From positions 1 to 14,318 of the IMG/VR virus record IMGVR_UViG_2778261064_000005: a stretch of DNA of 14,318 bases; one strand, given 5' to 3'. The notes under the pieces are model-generated. The model made no database searches and had not been told where the DNA came from. It worked only from the letters and a program-made list of their open reading frames with translations. The position numbers and the translations under genes were made by a program. The stretch's first letter is position 1, and every line of letters begins with the position of its first letter. Below are positions 1 through 14,318 of the stretch, in pieces. This DNA is from a virus. Taxonomy: Duplodnaviria > Heunggongvirae > Uroviricota > Caudoviricetes.

Positions 1-1
1 G

Positions 2-31
2 TGTCCATTAAAAATGATGGACATTATTTTT
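2..31 (+). terminator. Candidate intrinsic terminator upstream of holin (tR'-like position)
   Basis: Inverted repeat tgtccat (2-8) / atggaca (17-23) with 8-nt loop, followed by T-rich ttattttt (24-31). Stem is AT-rich and weak. Position matches lambdoid tR' just before the lysis genes. Confidence 0.25.
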
Positions 32-94
32 GTAGAGCCGGAGGAAACAGACCAGACGGTTTAAATGAGCCGGTTACACGGAGACATACATCAG

Positions 95-301
95 ATGGAA
101 AAAATCACAACAGGTGTGTCATACACCACGTCAGCGGTGGGGACGGGATACTGGTTACTGCAGCTGCTGGACAAAGTCTCTCCGTCCCAGTGGGTGGCGA
201 TAGGTGTGCTGGGGAGTCTGCTGTTTGGCCTGTTGACGTATCTTACTAACCTGTATTTCAAAATCAGAGAGGACCGTCGTAAGGCGGCGCGGGGAGAGTA
301 A
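95..301 (+). CDS. S: Class II pinholin, phage 21 S21-like (68 aa); possible longer antiholin form from in-frame ATG at 65
   Basis: Translation [10 protein letters not shown]...[22 protein letters not shown] closely matches my recollection of the S21-68 pinholin: two TM segments, the first Gly/Ala-rich SAR-like, and a charged C-terminus. GGAGA lies 10 nt upstream of ATG 95. In-frame ATG at 65 adds 10 residues including Arg. Confidence 0.85.
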
Positions 302-305
302 AGCG

Positions 306-650
306 ATGAAGAAAAAATACGAACTGGTTGTTAAAGGGATAAATAATTACCCGGATAAGATTACTGTTAGTGTGGCACTGGAAATTGGTGGGTATCCGTC
401 ACTGTTGTTGCCAGATGTGGCGATTAGTCTTGACCGTACTGAAGGAGCCACGCTGGAGTTTTACGAAGCTGAGGCGAAAAAGCAGGCGAAGCAGTTTTTC
501 ATGGATGTTGCTGCCGGGTTATGTGAAGGGGATGGTCCGTTGCCGGAAAAGCGGCCCATCATTTTAGAGGCGCAGGATGTGTTGATAACCTACAGAGGAA
601 AACTACCGGGAATAATTACTGGTTCTCTGAAGACTCCACCGCTGGCCTGA
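306..650 (+). CDS. Hypothetical protein between holin and endolysin (possibly YdfR/DUF1327-like by synteny with K-12 Qin essQ-ydfR-rrrQ)
   Basis: 114-codon ORF starting 5 nt after the holin stop with GGGGAGAG upstream. No TM segment or catalytic motif recognised. Family assignment is by position only. Confidence 0.6.
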   Translation: MKKKYELVVKGINNYPDKITVSVALEIGGYPSLLLPDVAISLDRTEGATLEFYEAEAKKQAKQFFMDVAAGLCEGDGPLPEKRPIILEAQDVLITYRGKLPGIITGSLKTPPLA

Positions 651-700
651 AGACTTAACATATCCAGGGATTTGAAATCGATAAATCCTGATAAATATCC

Positions 701-1234
701 ATGAACGCAAAAATCAGATACGGCCTGTCGGCTGCCGTTCTGGCGCTGATTGGTGCAGGGGCGTCTGCGCCTGAAATCCTCGACCAGTTTCTGGATGAAA
801 AGGAAGGTAACCACACCACGGCATACCGTGATGGTGCGGGTATCTGGACCATCTGCCGAGGTGCCATCCTGGTGGATGGTAAACCTGTCGTTCCGGGCAT
901 GAAGTTGTCGAAGGAAAAATGCGACCGGGTTAACGCCATTGAGCGTGATAAGGCGCTGGCATGGGTGGAGAAAAACATCAAAGTGCCGCTGACCGAACCC
1001 CAGAAAGCGGGGATCGCGTCATTCTGTCCGTACAACATTGGTCCCGGTAAGTGTTTCCCGTCGACGTTTTACAGACGAATTAATGCAGGTGATCGAAAAG
1101 GTGCCTGCGAAGCGATTCGCTGGTGGATTAAGGACGGTGGCAGAGACTGCCGTATTCGTTCAAACAACTGTTACGGTCAGGTATCCCGTCGTGACCAGGA
1201 GAGCGCGCTGGCGTGCTGGGGAATCGACAGATAA
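701..1234 (+). CDS. R: SAR endolysin, T4-lysozyme-like muramidase (GH24), R21-type
   Basis: N-terminal Gly/Ala-rich weakly hydrophobic segment YGLSAAVLALIGAGASA (signal-anchor-release). Catalytic E-8aa-D-5aa-T spacing visible in EGNHTTAYRDGAGIWT. 177 aa, the size of R21/RrrQ-type enzymes. Confidence 0.9.
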   Translation: MNAKIRYGLSAAVLALIGAGASAPEILDQFLDEKEGNHTTAYRDGAGIWTICRGAILVDGKPVVPGMKLSKEKCDRVNAIERDKALAWVEKNIKVPLTEPQKAGIASFCPYNIGPGKCFPSTFYRRINAGDRKGACEAIRWWIKDGGRDCRIRSNNCYGQVSRRDQESALACWGIDR

Positions 1235-1504
1235 GAAGAATATTTTGCTGAAAAATGAGGTTTGCTTACATGGACGGATAACACGAAATCCTGCAAATTT
1301 GCAAAATGTAAGTGAATAAAGTCAAAACAGTTGTTTAACACTCAGGCACCGTAATGATGCCTTTGTCATTTCTGCGCATCTCACGCGCATCTCACAACAC
1401 AGAACCTTTCAGGATGACCCTTGAGGATACCGGTTTGGCTGTCGGTGCCTTTCTGTGGACTGGATTCCTGTGAGACAAGGTTCATCACTAAAAGGAAATA
1501 ACCG

Positions 1505-2074
1505 ATGAATATGATGGCCGTGCCGTTTCACGGCAACTCTCTTTATGTAGTTAACCATAATGGCGAACCATACGTTCCCATGAAACCTGTCGTTGCGGGG
1601 ATGGGGCTGGCCTGGCAATCACAGTTGGCTAAGTTAAGACAGCGTTTTGCGTCAACTATAACGGAAATCGTTATGGTTGCTGAGGATGGGAAACAACGCA
1701 ATATGGTGTCCATGCCACTTCGAAAACTTGCCGGCTGGCTACAAACCATTAATCCCAACAAAGTAAAACCCGAAATCCGCGATAAGGTCATCCGGTATCA
1801 GGAAGAGTGCGACGATGTTCTTTACGAGTACTGGACGAAGGGTTTTGTCGTTAATCCCCGTAAAATGAGCGTGATGGAAGAACTCAACCAGGCTTGTGCT
1901 GACATGAAACGGGATAAAAATATTGCCAGTGTGTTTGCTACCGGGCTGAATGAGTGGAAACAGGTTAAAGCCGCGCATGTATCAAAAATCCGTACGCTGG
2001 TAAATGAAGCGAATATGCTGATTGATTTTGTCCTGGCTGATACAGGCAAAGGGAAAATAACAAAGGCGGATTGA
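1505..2074 (+). CDS. AntA-domain antirepressor-like protein
   Basis: N-terminus MNMMAVPFHGNSLYVVNHNGEPYVPMKPVVAGMGLAWQSQ resembles the AntA/AntB N-terminal domain of phage antirepressors (from memory). Strong RBS AAAGGAAA 7 nt upstream of the ATG. 270-bp upstream spacer carries a palindrome. Confidence 0.7.
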   Translation: MNMMAVPFHGNSLYVVNHNGEPYVPMKPVVAGMGLAWQSQLAKLRQRFASTITEIVMVAEDGKQRNMVSMPLRKLAGWLQTINPNKVKPEIRDKVIRYQEECDDVLYEYWTKGFVVNPRKMSVMEELNQACADMKRDKNIASVFATGLNEWKQVKAAHVSKIRTLVNEANMLIDFVLADTGKGKITKAD

Positions 2075-2220
2075 TGGGGTGGCTAATGATATCAGATAAA
2101 CTCATAACGCTGGTGAAGAGCCTCTGTGTACTTGTCGGCATTTCATTTTTAGTCATGCTGGTTGCCATTTTCTTTTCCACCGCCTGGCGAGTCCTGACGT
2201 TATCGGGACTGGTGGGGTGA
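2074..2220 (+). CDS. Small (48 aa) predicted single-pass membrane protein, translationally coupled to upstream gene
   Basis: ATG overlaps the upstream TGA stop (TGATG). Product [48 protein letters not shown] has one clear hydrophobic helix. It fills the Ant-Rz gap and ends 8 nt before the Rz start. Not in the supplied ORF track (below size cutoff). Confidence 0.35.
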
Positions 2221-2227
2221 AAGAGAG

Positions 2228-2695
2228 ATGAACCGTGTTCTGTGTGTGGTGATTATTGTCCTGGCGGTTGGCTGTGGTGCGCTGTGGCTGGCAACAAACC
2301 ATTACCGTGACAACGCGCTCACCTACAAAGCGCAGCGCGATAAAAAAGCCAGAGAGCTGGAACAGGCGAATGCAACCATTACTGATATGCAGCAGCGCCA
2401 GCGTGATGTTGCTGCACTTGATGCCAGATACTCGAGGGAATTAGCCGATGCGAGAGCTGAAAATGAAACTCTGCGCGCTGATGTTGCCGCTGGTCGTAAG
2501 CGCCTGCGCATCAACGCCAACTGTCCCGGTACCGTGCGTGAAGCCACCGGCACCGCCCGCGTGGATAATGCAACCGGCCCCCAACTGGCAGACACCGTTA
2601 CACGGGATTATTTCACCCTCAGAGAGCGGCTGATGACGATGCAGAAGCAACTGGAAGGGGCACAGGACTATATCCGCACTCAGTGCCTGAACTAA
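2228..2695 (+). CDS. Rz: Rz i-spanin (inner-membrane spanin subunit)
   Basis: N-terminal TM, then coiled-coil. Strong similarity to lambda Rz as I recall it ([67 protein letters not shown]). SD AAGAGAG upstream. Confidence 0.9.
2448..2633 (+). CDS. Rz1: Rz1 o-spanin lipoprotein, embedded in +1 frame within Rz
   Basis: Entirely inside Rz in another frame. Lipobox LVVSAC, Pro-rich mature region ([30 protein letters not shown]) closely matching lambda Rz1 from memory. True start may be the internal Met at about 2463. Confidence 0.85.
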
Positions 2696-2887
2696 GTTTT
2701 GCTGATGCGCCGTATCGTCGCTGTATTCCCTCATTAACAGAGACCGCAGCCCGACAGGGAGACTCCTCTGCGCGAGTGTGCGGGGATAATCAAAAACGAT
2801 ACACACCGGGGTTTACCGCGTTAACGGAGCGCGGCGTTGTCCCCTCATAGTCGCCTGTCCGGTACGATGGTGGAAGAAACCGAACGT

Positions 2888-3088
2888 TCATTTCTCGTTA
2901 TTTGTCATGCTGGCCGTACGCAGATGCGTTGCATCTGTTGCCAGCCTTCTCCTGCAGGCTTCAATAACCCACGCTGAAAAGTTACTGGACCCTTTATGCT
3001 CAAGGGCGATGTTGATCTGTTCAATCATGTGATTGGGGAAACGGATATTGCGGGTTGTGGTTCTGCGGGTCCGGTTTTTCGATGACAT
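2888..3088 (-). CDS. ylcI: YlcI-like small protein (DUF3950 family)
   Basis: Minus-strand ORF MSSKNRTRRTTTRNIRFPNHMIEQINIALEHKGSSNFSAWVIEACRRRL... resembles E. coli DLP12 YlcI as I recall it. Start chosen at internal ATG (3088) because AAAGGAAA lies 8 nt upstream; the ORF-track start at 3148 lacks an RBS and would overlap the HNH gene. Confidence 0.65.
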   Translation of the reverse strand: MSSKNRTRRTTTRNIRFPNHMIEQINIALEHKGSSNFSAWVIEACRRRLATDATHLRTASMTNNEK

Positions 3089-3129
3089 ATTTATTTCCTT
3101 TACTGATTGCCATATGACGGGGATTTTAC

Positions 3130-3495
3130 ATGGCTGAGCTTCGTACACTCCAGAGCAGAATCAAAACTCTGAACACCCGACGGGTGAATATTCTGAAGGG
3201 GGAACAGCGTCGTGTCAGTGGCAGTGCACGTGTTTCCCTCAAGCGTCATATCTGGCTGAGGGATGCCGGACAGTGCTGTCTCTGTGGTCGTGTGGTTGAC
3301 CTCTGTGACAGTGAACTCGATCACCGAATTGCACTTCAGTTCGGTGGTGGTAATGAGGAGACGAATCTCTGGACGCTCTGTACCGAATGCCATCGACAAA
3401 AGTCTGCTCGTGAAGCGGCGGGTGGTATGCCGGACCCGACGCTGCCGGAGGTGTCCGGAGGTCATGGCAGGGCAGACGATATCATCGGACTGTGA
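3130..3495 (+). CDS. Phage HNH endonuclease (packaging-associated)
   Basis: HNH motif CCLCGRVVDLCDSELDHRIALQFGGGNEETNLWTLCTECHRQKS (Cys pairs, catalytic His, conserved Asn). Sits immediately upstream of terS/terL as in HK97-like cos phages. Confidence 0.85.
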   Translation: MAELRTLQSRIKTLNTRRVNILKGEQRRVSGSARVSLKRHIWLRDAGQCCLCGRVVDLCDSELDHRIALQFGGGNEETNLWTLCTECHRQKSAREAAGGMPDPTLPEVSGGHGRADDIIGL

Positions 3496-3503
3496 CCCGC
3501 CCC

Positions 3504-3514
3504 GGGGGGGGGGG
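3504..3514. repeat. Homopolymeric G11 tract (preceded by CCCGCCCC)
   Basis: Eleven consecutive G directly after the HNH stop codon, in the region where a cos site is expected. Confidence 0.9.
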
Positions 3515-3587
3515 ATCATCCGGCGAAAAAAACGATCGCTCCGGACACCGCGCCCCCTCTCATGCAGAGAAAAAATTCCCGTTTCAG

Positions 3588-3712
3588 GCCAGTTAACATG
3601 TTAACTGGCTGTTCGGCCTTTTTTCTGTTTTTATCTTTATAATTCAGTTTATTGCGTGGAAAAAATGTTAACCGACTTTTTCGGAAAATGTTAACCAGGC
3701 AGCAGTTAACAT
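3588..3712. promoter_or_regulatory. GTTAAC-motif array with perfect 22-bp palindrome; putative terminase small-subunit binding / cos-proximal region
   Basis: Perfect palindrome GCCAGTTAACATGTTAACTGGC (3588-3609). AAAATGTTAACC direct repeat at 3662-3673 and 3685-3696. CAGTTAACAT at 3594-3603 and 3703-3712. Five GTTAAC hexamers in about 125 bp, AT-rich spacer, lying between HNH and terS. Confidence 0.35.
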
Positions 3713-3786
3713 TCGGGGTATGCGCGGTGTGGGAAAACGGCCTGATGCATGCCCGGCTGAGAGAGTTTTGACCCCGGGAGGGCACT

Positions 3787-4350
3787 GTGCTGACGACGCA
3801 AAAACGAAAATTTGCGCTGGCGCTCATGTCCGGGAAAAACAAAACAGCGTCAGCCATTGCGGCAGGTTATTCGGCGAAGACGGCCAGAGTTAAAGGCTCG
3901 CAGCTGGCAAAAGATCCGGAGGTGCTTGCGTTTATAGCCCGTAAACAGGGCGAGACGGTGGAGGTGGATGAGGTTCCTGTTTACCGGCAGAAAAAATCAG
4001 AGCAGGAGGATAAACCCCGTCGCCGTGAGGCGGCTGCAATACCACAGCAGGACGAAACAAATCCGGAGATGCCACCGCCCGTGGTGATATCTCCTAGTAT
4101 TGATTACATGGAAGACGGTCTTCCAGATCCGGTAAAAGCAATGGGGAGGATCCTGGTGGAAAACCTGATAATTGACCCGAAACTGGCACTGGATGCGGCC
4201 TGGCGACTGGCGCAGTTCACACACTATAAAAAAGGCGATGCTGGTAAAAAATCGGCAAAAGGTGACGCGGCGAAAAAAGCGGCTAACCGTTTTGCGGTGC
4301 CACCACCACCCCGACTGGTGGTGAATAATGATAATGAGGGCAACGGATGA
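3787..4350 (+). CDS. terS: Terminase small subunit (P27/Terminase_2-like)
   Basis: GTG start with GGGAGGG upstream. N-terminus LTTQKRKFALALMSGKNKTASAIAAGYSAKTA matches the small-terminase N-terminal HTH region. Acidic/Pro-rich linker follows. Stop overlaps terL start (ATGA). Confidence 0.85.
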   Translation: MLTTQKRKFALALMSGKNKTASAIAAGYSAKTARVKGSQLAKDPEVLAFIARKQGETVEVDEVPVYRQKKSEQEDKPRRREAAAIPQQDETNPEMPPPVVISPSIDYMEDGLPDPVKAMGRILVENLIIDPKLALDAAWRLAQFTHYKKGDAGKKSAKGDAAKKAANRFAVPPPPRLVVNNDNEGNG

Positions 4351-6008
4351 TACCTGTGTGGAGCACGGCCTGCCCGGACTGGGCAGAGCGCCTGAAAAAG
4401 GGGCTGTCGATTATTCCGTCTCCGATTTACCCGGAGCAGGCCGCACATGCCCTGGCGATTTTTAAACAACTGCGGATTGTGGATGCACCGGGCAGCCCGA
4501 CGTTCGGTGAGTCCTGTGCACAGTGGGTGTTTGACCTGGTGGCGGCTCTGTTTGGCTCCTACGATGCGCAGACCGGTGTCCGCCATATCAAGGAAGTGTT
4601 CATTCTGATACCCAAAAAAAACAGCAAGTCCACACTGGCCGCCGGGATCATGATGACGGCGCTGTTACTGAACTGGCGGCAGGCGGCGGGTTACACGATT
4701 CTGGCCCCGACTGTGGAGGTGGCAGCCAACGCCTTCAATCCTGCCAGGGATATGGTACGACGGGACGATGATCTGGATGACCTCTGCCAGGTACAGACCC
4801 ATATCCGGACCATCACCCACAGGGTGACAGACACCACCCTGAAGGTGGTGGCAGCCGATCCGAATACGGTGTCCGGTATCAAGTCCGTGGGTACGCTGAT
4901 TGATGAGTTGTGGCTGTTTGGCAAGCAGTGCAAGGCGGAGGACATGTTACGTGAAGCCATAGGCGGCCTTGCCTCCCGCCCGGAAGGGTTTGTGGTGTAT
5001 ACGACCACCCAGTCGAATGAACCGCCCGCCGGGGTGTTCAGACAGAAACTGCAGTACGCCCGGGATGTGCGCGACGGCAAAATTCATGATCCGCACTTTC
5101 TGCCGGTGATATTTGAACACCCTCCTGAAATGGTGGAAAGCGGGGCTCACTTGCTGATGGAAAACCTCGCCATGGTCAATCCGAATCTCGGCTATTCGGT
5201 GGATGAGGCCTTTCTGTACCGGGAGTACCGTAAAGCCCGGGAGGCTGGTGAGGAAGCATTTCGTGGCTTCATGTCAAAACACGCCAATGTGGAAATTGGC
5301 CTTGCCCTGCGTTCTGACCGCTGGGCGGGCGCGGATTTCTGGGAGCAGCAGGGCAGGCGCGTCAGCCTGGAAGATATCCTGCAGCGCGCTGATGTGGTGA
5401 CGGTGGGGATTGACGGCGGGGGCCTGGATGATCTGCTGGGAATGTACGTGATTGGTCGTGATCGGGAGACCCGCGAATGGTTAGGCTGGGGCCATGCCTG
5501 GGCGCATGAAACCGCGGTGGTCCGACGGAAGAGTGAGGCATCCCGGTTTCAGGATTTTGTGGCCTGTGGAGACATGACGATTGTCCGTCGGGTCGGGGAT
5601 GACACGGCGGAAGTGGCGGAGTATGTGCGTCGTATTCATGAGGCTGAGTTACTGGATCATATCGGTATTGACCCGTCAGGTGTGGGGCAGATTCTGGATT
5701 CACTGGCGGAAGCCGGGATCCCCGACGGAATTGTTGTGGGGATAAGCCAGGGCTGGAAGCTGGGCGGGGCCATCAAAACCACCGAACGCAAACTGGCTGA
5801 AGGGGTGCTGGTGCATGGTGGCCAGCCACTGATGGCCTGGTGCGTTGGCAATGCCCGGGTGGAGCCCAGAGGTAACGCCATCCTTATTACCAAACAGGCC
5901 AGCGGACGGGGGAAAATCGACCCGCTGATGGCGCTTTTCAATGCGGTATCCCTGATGTCCCTGAATCCGGAGCCCAAAAAGAAAGAATATGCGGTTTTTT
6001 TCATATAA
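4347..6008 (+). CDS. terL: Terminase large subunit (ATPase/nuclease)
   Basis: 553 aa. Translationally coupled to terS. P-loop-like ILIPKKNSKST, then a C-terminal nuclease-type region. Size and position typical of HK97-like TerL. Confidence 0.9.
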   Translation: MIPVWSTACPDWAERLKKGLSIIPSPIYPEQAAHALAIFKQLRIVDAPGSPTFGESCAQWVFDLVAALFGSYDAQTGVRHIKEVFILIPKKNSKSTLAAGIMMTALLLNWRQAAGYTILAPTVEVAANAFNPARDMVRRDDDLDDLCQVQTHIRTITHRVTDTTLKVVAADPNTVSGIKSVGTLIDELWLFGKQCKAEDMLREAIGGLASRPEGFVVYTTTQSNEPPAGVFRQKLQYARDVRDGKIHDPHFLPVIFEHPPEMVESGAHLLMENLAMVNPNLGYSVDEAFLYREYRKAREAGEEAFRGFMSKHANVEIGLALRSDRWAGADFWEQQGRRVSLEDILQRADVVTVGIDGGGLDDLLGMYVIGRDRETREWLGWGHAWAHETAVVRRKSEASRFQDFVACGDMTIVRRVGDDTAEVAEYVRRIHEAELLDHIGIDPSGVGQILDSLAEAGIPDGIVVGISQGWKLGGAIKTTERKLAEGVLVHGGQPLMAWCVGNARVEPRGNAILITKQASGRGKIDPLMALFNAVSLMSLNPEPKKKEYAVFFI

Positions 6009-6034
6009 CCCTGTTCACCCTGTAACCATCATGG

Positions 6035-6054
6035 ACCGCTGCGGCGGTTTTTTT
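6035..6054 (+). terminator. Weak terminator-like hairpin + T-run between terL and capsid ORF
   Basis: accgc-tgcg-gcggt stem-loop (6035-6048) followed by T7 (6048-6054), then AGGAGG and GTG start of the next gene. Confidence 0.3.
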
Positions 6055-6071
6055 ATTTTCAGGAGGCTGAT

Positions 6072-14247: not shown

Positions 14248-14318
14248 CTTCGCGTTTTTTTCTGGGCTAATTGACGCGCAATTCCGGGCGGGGAGCGCGC
14301 AACCCAAAAGCCCAGAAT

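Follow-up and report, generated by a model that had tools for sequence, protein, structure and literature searches.

A probable cos region between the HNH endonuclease and small terminase genes of a Pankowvirus-like prophage

Several tailed phages package DNA that ends in a short 3' overhang, cut at a cohesive-end (cos) site. In the Xanthomonas phages Xp10 and Xop411 the overhang is the 9-nt sequence 5'-GGACAGTCT-3' (PMC2248197), and the Xp10-like phage ZP3 was assigned COS 3' ends by PhageTerm (PMC11437452). HK97 has a 10-nt 3' overhang, and its cleavage is stimulated by an HNH protein (PMC11331095). In SfI, run-off sequencing found a gap corresponding to the decamer TGCCCGCCCC (PMC3636060). 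Here we compare these systems with a 14,318-nt stretch of Caudoviricetes DNA (IMG/VR record IMGVR_UViG_2778261064_000005, positions 1 to 14,318), referred to as the window. Its positions 3496-3786 (291 bp) are non-coding, since the open reading frame (ORF) of an HNH endonuclease gene ends at 3495 and that of the small terminase gene terS begins at 3787. A preliminary description had read this stretch as a candidate cos or terminase-recognition region. Comparative evidence supports this reading, and sequence comparison makes it very probable that 3496-3786 is a cos region. A cos site of the HK97/Xp10 type, at which HNH, the small terminase (TerS) and the large terminase (TerL) would act together, also has a high probability as an explanation of the region as a whole.

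The features that had been named are present: a C4 tract (3500-3503) followed by a G11 tract (3504-3514), a perfect 22-bp palindrome (3588-3609), two short repeated sequences with two copies each, and an AT-rich spacer, with 25–35% G+C over approximately 3600-3700 compared to 55–70% on either side. They are far beyond chance, conserved, and positionally homologous to mapped phage ends. The preliminary description is right in substance; it overlooked the origin of the palindrome and a C-rich decamer at 3549-3558, the probable position of the cut.

Mapped ends of relatives and the predicted cut

The TerL of the window is 84% identical to that of Salmonella phage FSL SP-016, 70% to Pseudomonas phage IME307, 59% to Pseudomonas phage BR178a, 51% to Xanthomonas phage CP1 and 47% to Xp10. 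Identity is 23% for HK97, about 22% for SfV and SfIV and 21% for D3, which was rejected as a guide to the cut for this reason. In Xp10, CP1 and phiL7 the genome ends fall between the HNH gene and terS. The preliminary description had proposed a comparison with the cos regions of related phages, and this comparison finds window positions 3504-3581 homologous to the mapped genome ends of Xp10/Xop411, CP1, phiL7 and OP1.

The last bases of the Xp10 record are the 9-mer GGACAGTCT, 71 nt after the HNH gene, and the first bases are CCCATTCGCAGAAAAATTACCCG. The joined Xp10 sequence, GGGTGGGGGTAGG...GATCGCCGAACTTAAGCC/GGACAGTCT/CCCATTCGCAGAAAAATTACCCG (slashes mark nicks; GCC stands directly before the overhang), aligns with the window sequence GGGGGGGGGGGATCATCC...GATCGCTCCGGACAC/CGCGCCCCCT/CTCATGCAGAGAAAAAATTCCCG. 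The OP1 record starts with CTCGTTCGCATAAAAATTACCCG at the same aligned base as Xp10. The CP1 record begins with CTCAGCGAGAGAAAAAATACCCC and ends in TTGGAC CCAGTTGTCT, its last 10 nt occupying the position of the window overhang. The CP1 overhang is reportedly 10 nt long, CCAGTTGTCT, in agreement with the ends of the record. The phiL7 record opens at the other nick, exactly 10 nt leftward of the Xp10, CP1 and OP1 ends, so that ACCGGAC precedes its opening and CTGACTGGTC CGCATTCCGAGAAAAATTACCC follows it. In the window and in three Xanthomonas phages, an A-tract begins at +12 from the right-hand nick.

Homology to the Xp10/Xop411 overhang, to the last 10 nt of the CP1 record and to the first 10 nt of the phiL7 record makes CGCGCCCCCT (3549-3558, plus strand), between the G tract and the palindrome, the likely site of the cut, where a 3' overhang of 9–10 nt is predicted. 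The decamer is bordered by GGACAC (3543-3548, plus strand), which corresponds to a family consensus CTAGAC or GGANAC in a 54-sequence multi-genus alignment, and by CTCATGCAGAGAAAAAATTCCCG (3559-3581, plus strand), the predicted first bases of the mature chromosome, with the A-tract at +12 to +17. On balance, the alignments favor a top-strand (right) nick at 3558/3559. The bottom-strand nick is predicted at about 3548/3549, with a left boundary uncertain by approximately 2 nt.

Conservation around the decamer is uneven. In the multi-genus as well as the E. coli-type alignments, 3549-3558 is the most variable stretch, with conserved blocks on both sides, and among 58 unique E. coli-type variants it reads CGC(G/C)CCCC(C/G)T. 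Such variability is expected for a cohesive end, which needs only to match itself. The right flank, from +3 to +23, is conserved whichever type of TerS is present. The dinucleotide AC immediately precedes the overhang in HK97, SfI/SfV, CP1 and phiL7. In HK97 a G9 run is followed by 32 nt ending in TGAC/CGCCGCCAAA/, and in SfV GGGGAGGGGCGGG is followed by 31 nt ending in TCCGGAC/TGCCCGCCCC/. The window shares the G-run and the layout of AC followed by a 10-nt end with HK97 and SfI/SfV, the ends of which were mapped experimentally (PMC3636060, PMC11331095).

The same comparison bears on a different position of the cut. The sequence CCCGCCCC (3496-3503) abuts the G11 tract and matches the SfI overhang TGCCCGCCCC at 8 of 10 bases (PMC3636060), so the cut could be sought here, as in SfI/SfV, leaving 3540-3581 as mere flanking recognition sequence. 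With its partial direct repeat, TCATCCGGCGAAAAAA/TCATGCAGAGAAAAAA, the side of the G tract resembles another, degenerate version of the core. However, the SfV overhang lies about 31 nt downstream of its G-run, directly after TCCGGAC, which is the position of window 3547-3558. The C-run before the G-run is confined to enteric members and is missing in most relatives. Moreover, the SfV TerL is only about 22% identical, whereas Xp10 and CP1, at 47–51%, put the cut at 3558/3559. We rejected CCCGCCCC once the SfI overhang had been placed relative to the SfV G-run, and consider a cut at this position highly improbable.

Further observations concern the surroundings of the predicted cut at 3549-3558. 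The copies of the direct repeat, TCATCCGGCGAAAAAA (3516-3531) and TCATGCAGAGAAAAAA (3560-3575), are 44 nt apart and occur only in enteric members; the bases directly past the G-run are similar to the right flank. The G tract is bracketed by a perfect 11-bp inverted repeat, GGTGTCCGGAG (3450-3460) and CTCCGGACACC (3539-3549), whose right arm ends at the predicted left nick. This inverted repeat may be due to chance, since it is absent in FSL SP-016 and weakened in the common TTTGGACACC variants. Three independent IMG/VR contigs from isolate genomes have a terminus no more than 5 nt away from the predicted nick (L098 ending at 3563, L102 ending at 3562, L216 starting at 3558). This clustering is noteworthy, but we dismissed it as evidence for the cut: the contigs are isolate-genome assemblies and adjoin a T/C polymorphism, and their ends are probably assembly breaks, located either at this polymorphism or where co-resident prophages form a mosaic boundary. 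The starts of the Burkholderia vB_CB2a and Pseudomonas BR178a records were likewise rejected as physical ends. They lie 21 and about 5–7 nt inside the right flank, and sister records start tens of nucleotides apart.

The conserved element and its G-run

To follow the element beyond phages with mapped ends, we scanned one genome per species by TerL alignment, which yielded 80 loci with 58–84% identity, from hosts including Enterobacter, Citrobacter, Proteus, Pseudomonas, Paraburkholderia, Massilia, Acidovorax and Pandoraea. As one contig was too short, 79 loci were searched with an nhmmer profile built from four junctions. A non-coding element directly upstream of terS was found in 62 of the 79 loci across many proteobacterial genera, among them the first seven just listed, with 50 of the 62 at E < 1e-3. 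An HNH homolog is encoded upstream of TerL in 74 of the 79 loci, and in 61 of the 62 that contain the element. The family consensus opens with a G-run and an A-rich stretch (TCAAAAGTCT); after about 20 variable nucleotides come CTAGAC or GGANAC and the variable G+C-rich decamer. It continues with C-N-C-A-Y-G-C-G-C-A-G-A-A-A-A-W-T-T-Y-C-C-C-C-T-T-T, followed by a Shine-Dalgarno sequence and terS.

Some genes annotated as holins just upstream of terS match the HNH family. The match is clear for IME307 (locus L004, 1082-1417 of MN096267.1, E = 3e-9); for vB_CB2a (locus L093, 304-642 of PV072763.1) it reaches only E = 5e-3, below the Pfam cut-off. Both holin annotations are likely misannotations.

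The G11 tract (3504-3514, plus strand) is the local form of the conserved G-run and is situated on the side of the predicted cut that is packaged last. No other homopolymer in the 14.3-kb window is longer than 8. A run of at least five G is present at -75 to -25 from the predicted nick in 45 of 50 loci, compared to 1.3% of background 50-nt windows. The run is also found in HK97, SfV, Xp10, CP1 and phiL7, ending approximately 30–34 nt before the cut. The 58 E. coli-type variants have runs of 7 to 11 G, and a single truncated contig has 13. In its position the run is similar to lambda cosQ, and a role in termination or a cosQ-like function is possible but doubtful.

The PPompW prophages (L299, LC567822.1, 746-2204) carry an IS110-family element, ISEc20, exactly at the G tract (window position ~3510), with G-runs on both sides of the insertion, TTCGGGGGGG/IS/GGGGGATCATCC. 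The G-run may be an insertion target for ISEc20. The lysis genes and the HNH gene are missing in these prophages, where Q and tRNAs are directly followed by the insertion sequence, then the cos core and terS. They have a cos without an HNH of their own.

The GTTAAC sites and the start of terS

Downstream of the predicted cut, the repeats of the preliminary description reduce to the 8-mer ATGTTAAC, which occurs in five copies and in both orientations, all within 3592-3712 and none elsewhere in the window. Shuffled windows contain 0.27 copies on average, and five copies were reached in none of 200. The hexamer GTTAAC occurs five times in this 121-bp span and four times in the rest of the window. 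Two of the sites lie in the perfect 22-bp palindrome GCCAGTTAACATGTTAACTGGC (3588-3609), which includes the first copy of CAGTTAACAT (3590-3599) and is a candidate TerS binding site. Three further copies of ATGTTAAC (3662-3712) lie in AAAATGTTAACC at 3662-3673 and 3685-3696 and, inverted, in the second CAGTTAACAT at 3703-3712; these are candidate cosB-like TerS sites. The sites are separated by the AT-rich, T-tract-rich spacer (3610-3661), which is specific to the E. coli-type lineage and could provide a bend or a weak terminator tail. All five GTTAAC copies are kept in 58 of 58 unique E. coli-type variants.

The relatives point to the origin of the palindrome. In FSL SP-016, Enterobacter L011 and Citrobacter L058, terS begins within palindrome-homologous sequence (gtaaacATGTTAACagcg; GTTAACGTGTTAAC), 24–39 nt from the predicted nick, and the ATGTTAAC copy at 3598 aligns with their terS starts. 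As judged from this alignment, the palindrome is the ancestral terS start region and the ATG at 3598 is vestigial. In the window it opens only a 14-codon remnant ORF (3598-3642). The spacer is missing from FSL SP-016 and most relatives, in which terS starts 24–46 nt from the predicted nick. The real terS start of the window is located 228 nt from the nick, indicating that the E. coli-type lineage has an extra segment of approximately 190 bp (3606-3786). At this start, GTG CTG ACG, codons 2 and 3 are CTG ACG compared to TTA ACN in the family, and the motif has been lost. The last 75 bp before terS (3713-3786) diverge strongly from the majority E. coli-type variant, with the GTTAAC sites and terS nearly identical; this segment is a local recombination or replacement patch.

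The occurrence of the motif follows the type of TerS. In loci with a Terminase_2-type TerS starting with M-A-L-T, the sequence TTGTTA(A)ATGGCTTTAAC forms an inverted GTTAA-N5-TTAAC across the start codon. Every Terminase_2-type locus (N-terminus M-(A)-L-T or a close variant) contains at least two GTTAA/TTAAC half-sites, whereas no half-sites are found in loci with a TerS starting MAGVKG or similar (P27/HK97-like), despite the same nick flanks. The core thus tracks TerL and HNH, and the motif tracks TerS. Codon usage at the start is also unusual. Among 44 Terminase_2-type loci (terL with 62% G+C), the third TerS residue, leucine, is encoded by TTA in 37 of 42, and TTA accounts for 0.66% of leucine codons in the adjacent terL. 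Given the rarity of TTA in terL, the selection at this position is on the nucleotides rather than on the protein. Three GTTAAC copies, 13 nt apart, are present in IME307 and Oceanisphaera L071.

Based on these patterns, the GTTAAC sites are probably TerS binding sites. The conserved upstream copies fit DNA sites for the helix-turn-helix domain of TerS, by analogy with lambda cosB or the SPP1 pac boxes.

Alternatively, the GTTAAC copies could be relics of a duplicated terS 5' end or elements of terS translational control, with recognition mediated by the core at 3543-3581 alone. The vestigial start at 3598 with its 14-codon ORF would fit such a history, as would the conservation of the +3 to +23 block regardless of TerS type. 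The TerS of HK97 binds at +15 to +29, beside an A-tract (PMC11331095), and in most relatives the motif overlaps with the start codon and the ribosome-binding region of terS, so a role at the RNA level is possible. On the other hand, the real terS start has lost the motif, yet five perfect copies persist upstream of it in all 58 variants. Copies in both orientations would not be expected if a coding start had simply been duplicated in tandem, and the IME307, Oceanisphaera L071 and Pigmentiphaga loci independently carry 2–3 spaced GTTAAC copies. We consider the relic explanation distinctly unlikely.

The palindrome and the T-run downstream of it had also been noted as a possible terminator for the HNH transcript. 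If this were their main function, a terminator or RNA hairpin would shield the head genes from the transcript that covers HNH and lysis, and the repeats would be incidental. The segment 3570-3650 is predicted to fold into a 10-bp hairpin, extended by a lower stem of 3 bp (CCG/CGG) and with CC and U6 after it (-17.9 kcal/mol, z = -3.7), and both the lower stem and the T-runs are kept among E. coli-type variants. Nevertheless, no terminator was called in 3496-3786, nor was a plus-strand promoter. The T6 run begins 10 nt past the perfect stem and is bridged only by the 3-bp lower stem, where a G+C-rich stem with a T-run within 0–2 nt would be looked for. By analogy with lambda, as generally known, the late transcripts of a lambdoid phage would be Q-antiterminated across this junction. 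A terminator also leaves unexplained the three further ATGTTAAC copies in both orientations and the conservation of GTTAA-N5-TTAAC, with no T-run, at the terS starts of other genera. As the main explanation it is very unlikely, and even a weak secondary terminator function appears unlikely. Across the whole region, RNA folding is only mildly better than in shuffled sequences (z = -2.2), and an Rfam search of the region gave best scores of 17.6 and 17.4 bits, with gathering thresholds of 70 and 50, respectively.

Prophage context, packaging and known systems

The window represents a lambdoid, long-tailed prophage similar to BP-4795 and 2851 of the genus Pankowvirus. The HNH gene (3130-3495, plus strand) encodes 121 aa (Pfam HNH, E = 7e-7; PHROG 589 HNH, E = 6e-45) and is preceded by genes for a lysozyme, an Ant-like protein and Rz (Pfam, PHROG). 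It is followed by terS (3787-4350, plus strand; GTG start, 187 aa; PHROG 641, E = 4e-66) and terL (4347-6008, plus strand; 553 aa; Pfam TerL_ATPase and TerL_nuclease), the product of which falls into the clade of the 3'-cos phages Xp10 and CP1. Genes for a fused prohead protease and major capsid protein and for the portal come next (Pfam, PHROG). The fusion (6072-8009) is 645 aa long and combines Peptidase_S78 with Phage_capsid. The portal gene (8221-9585) comes after, not before, this fusion, an unusual head-gene order that IME307 shares past its terL. An antisense ORF at 3516-3857 has no match to any PHROG family.

The window DNA at the HNH-terS junction is 84–91% identical to that of 94 phage records, nearly all of them long-tailed Stx1a, Stx2a or Stx2c converting phages and relatives such as BP-4795, 2851, 1717, YYZ-2008 and phi330 (genus Pankowvirus). 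The region was found in 1253 of 5426 complete E. coli genomes, with as many as 8 copies in one genome. Its RefSeq annotation is limited to the flanking genes (HNH endonuclease and terminase small subunit). In phi330 the HNH gene is unannotated, and minus-strand ORFs are annotated over it instead.

The N-terminal domain of TerS is a Terminase_2 helix-turn-helix (Pfam, residues 2-59, E = 7e-9) with weak matches in the PDB to the DNA-binding domains of SF6-type small terminases. As this SPP1/SF6-type domain is that of pac phages, the region could in principle be a headful pac site. The short repeats and the AT-rich spacer also resemble SPP1 pac. However, TerL groups with the 3'-cos phages Xp10 and CP1, the HNH gene adjoins the region, and the flanks of the nick are homologous to mapped cohesive ends. 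It is the type of TerL and not that of TerS that tracks the end type, according to the passage of PMC12315714 that cites Casjens and Gilcrease. A pac site is thus extremely improbable.

Returning to the cos reading, packaging could proceed as follows; the exact nick positions, the assignment of proteins to sequence blocks and the role of the G-run are those that we infer from the comparison. TerS would bind the five ATGTTAAC sites, located +34 to +154 from the cut, through its SPP1/SF6-type N-terminal helix-turn-helix, and the AT-rich spacer would let the DNA bend or wrap between them. TerS would thereby place TerL, with the help of HNH, on the core GGACAC/CGCGCCCCCT/CTCATGCAGAGAAAAAATTCCCG. 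Staggered nicks on either side of 3549-3558 would leave a 3' overhang of 9–10 nt, and packaging would proceed rightward into terS and terL, so that the DNA enters the head from the terS side. The G11 run, approximately 32–34 nt upstream on the end that is packaged last, might serve termination in the manner of lambda cosQ or be contacted by HNH or TerL, and would help the cutting of the next cos.

Several points weigh against this reading. Each of the 94 matching phage records was either derived from a prophage or opened at an arbitrary point, and none provides mapped physical ends, be it for the phage or its close relatives; the phi330 record was opened within terS after restriction cloning (PMC12502783). 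Our literature search found no mapped cos in BP-4795, 2851 or Pankowvirus phages. The nick position is transferred from relatives with TerL identities of only 47–51%, and these and other relatives do not agree in the length of the overhang (Xp10 has 9 nt, SfI and HK97 have 10 nt, and PMC9410871 gives 12 nt for HK97). The left boundary is ambiguous by 2 nt because GGAC and ACAC both end in AC. The HK97 TerS, which belongs to a different family, binds at +15 to +29 (PMC11331095), and this position corresponds to the A-tract/CCCG block of the window, not to the GTTAAC repeats. Finally, the differences in G-run length may partly be homopolymer sequencing errors. As to HK97, two papers from one group put the length of its 3' overhang at 10 nt (PMC11331095) and at 12 nt (PMC9410871), and this discrepancy is the same 2-nt ambiguity as that of the left boundary in the window.

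A broader proposal is that the G-run and the GTTAA-N5-TTAAC operator jointly represent general, so far undescribed parts of HNH-dependent 3'-cos sites. The G-run could then signal termination or the docking of HNH, much as lambda cosQ does for termination, and its length variation in E. coli (7–13) could tune packaging efficiency. The small-terminase operator may overlap the terS start and force the rare TTA codon in high-G+C hosts. In the lineage of the Stx phages its copy number may have risen to five, with the operator no longer tied to the start codon. We regard this joint proposal as speculative and rather unlikely.

The packaging module is very common in prophages, and the region is also part of many Stx1, Stx2a and Stx2c converting phages. 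A base-level prediction of cos and its recognition sites would help to open the genomes of such phages correctly and to judge which of the many O157-type prophages remain packageable, alone or by a co-resident helper. It could also be useful for the design of cosmid or transduction assays and in the search for satellites that copy cos. While this type of element is already well known, the comparison yields candidates that can be tested for two ill-defined portions of HK97-type cos sites, the upstream part and the part bound by TerS. Specialist interest might be limited to the two generalizations, that of a conserved G-run and that of a GTTAAC operator specific to the TerS type.

Among the described systems, SPP1 and SF6 share with the window the N-terminal helix-turn-helix domain of the small terminase (G1P), which belongs to the same Pfam family. 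Recognition in SPP1/SF6 uses several short boxes in bent DNA. Unlike these phages, which package by headful from pac, the window has a TerL, an HNH and a nick core that indicate cohesive ends.

Lambda cos (cosQ-cosN-cosB) has the same three-part logic: an element upstream, on the end that is packaged last, then the nick site, and then repeats for the small terminase. Its repeated gpNu1 R sites are split by a bendable AT-rich spacer beside the small-terminase gene. In contrast, the lambda overhang is 5' and 12 nt long, lambda lacks an HNH partner, and the TerL of the window (TerL_ATPase and TerL_nuclease) groups with 3'-cos phages. No sequence resembling the lambda cosN GGGCGGCGACCT occurs in the window with up to 2 mismatches, and the IHF consensus WATCAANNNNTTR has no match with up to 1 mismatch within 3496-3786.

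SfI/SfV cos resembles the window in its C-rich 10-nt end TGCCCGCCCC after TCCGGAC, the G-rich run about 31 nt upstream and the HNH gene immediately upstream (PMC3636060). It differs in a TerL of only about 22% identity, in a T-rich right flank that is A-rich in the window, and in the absence of GTTAAC repeats. HK97 (gp74 HNH, TerS gp1, TerL gp2) has the same order of HNH, cos, terS and terL, and its G9 run ends approximately 32 nt before TGAC/CGCCGCCAAA/. It has a 3' overhang, HNH-stimulated cleavage and a TerS site just past the cut (PMC11331095, PMC9410871), features that are also predicted for the window, where HNH co-occurs with the site. However, its TerL is 23% identical, no similarity between the TerS proteins was detected, the right flank differs, and HK97 TerS recognizes one 15-bp site (+15 to +29) rather than multiple GTTAAC repeats.

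The Xanthomonas phages Xp10/Xop411, OP1, CP1 and phiL7 are virulent phages of another genus. Their small terminases are short 1R/2R-type proteins with no Terminase_2 match, GTTAAC repeats are absent, terS is further from the cut, and the overhang sequence is unrelated. Nevertheless, they share the TerL clade (47–51% identity) and an HNH gene immediately upstream, which in these phages is at the right genome end, and they have the 3' overhang that is predicted for the window. Their G-run, A-rich stretch, AC followed by the 9–10-nt end, and C-N-C-A...GAGAAAAA-TT-CCC right flank align with 3504-3581 of the window.

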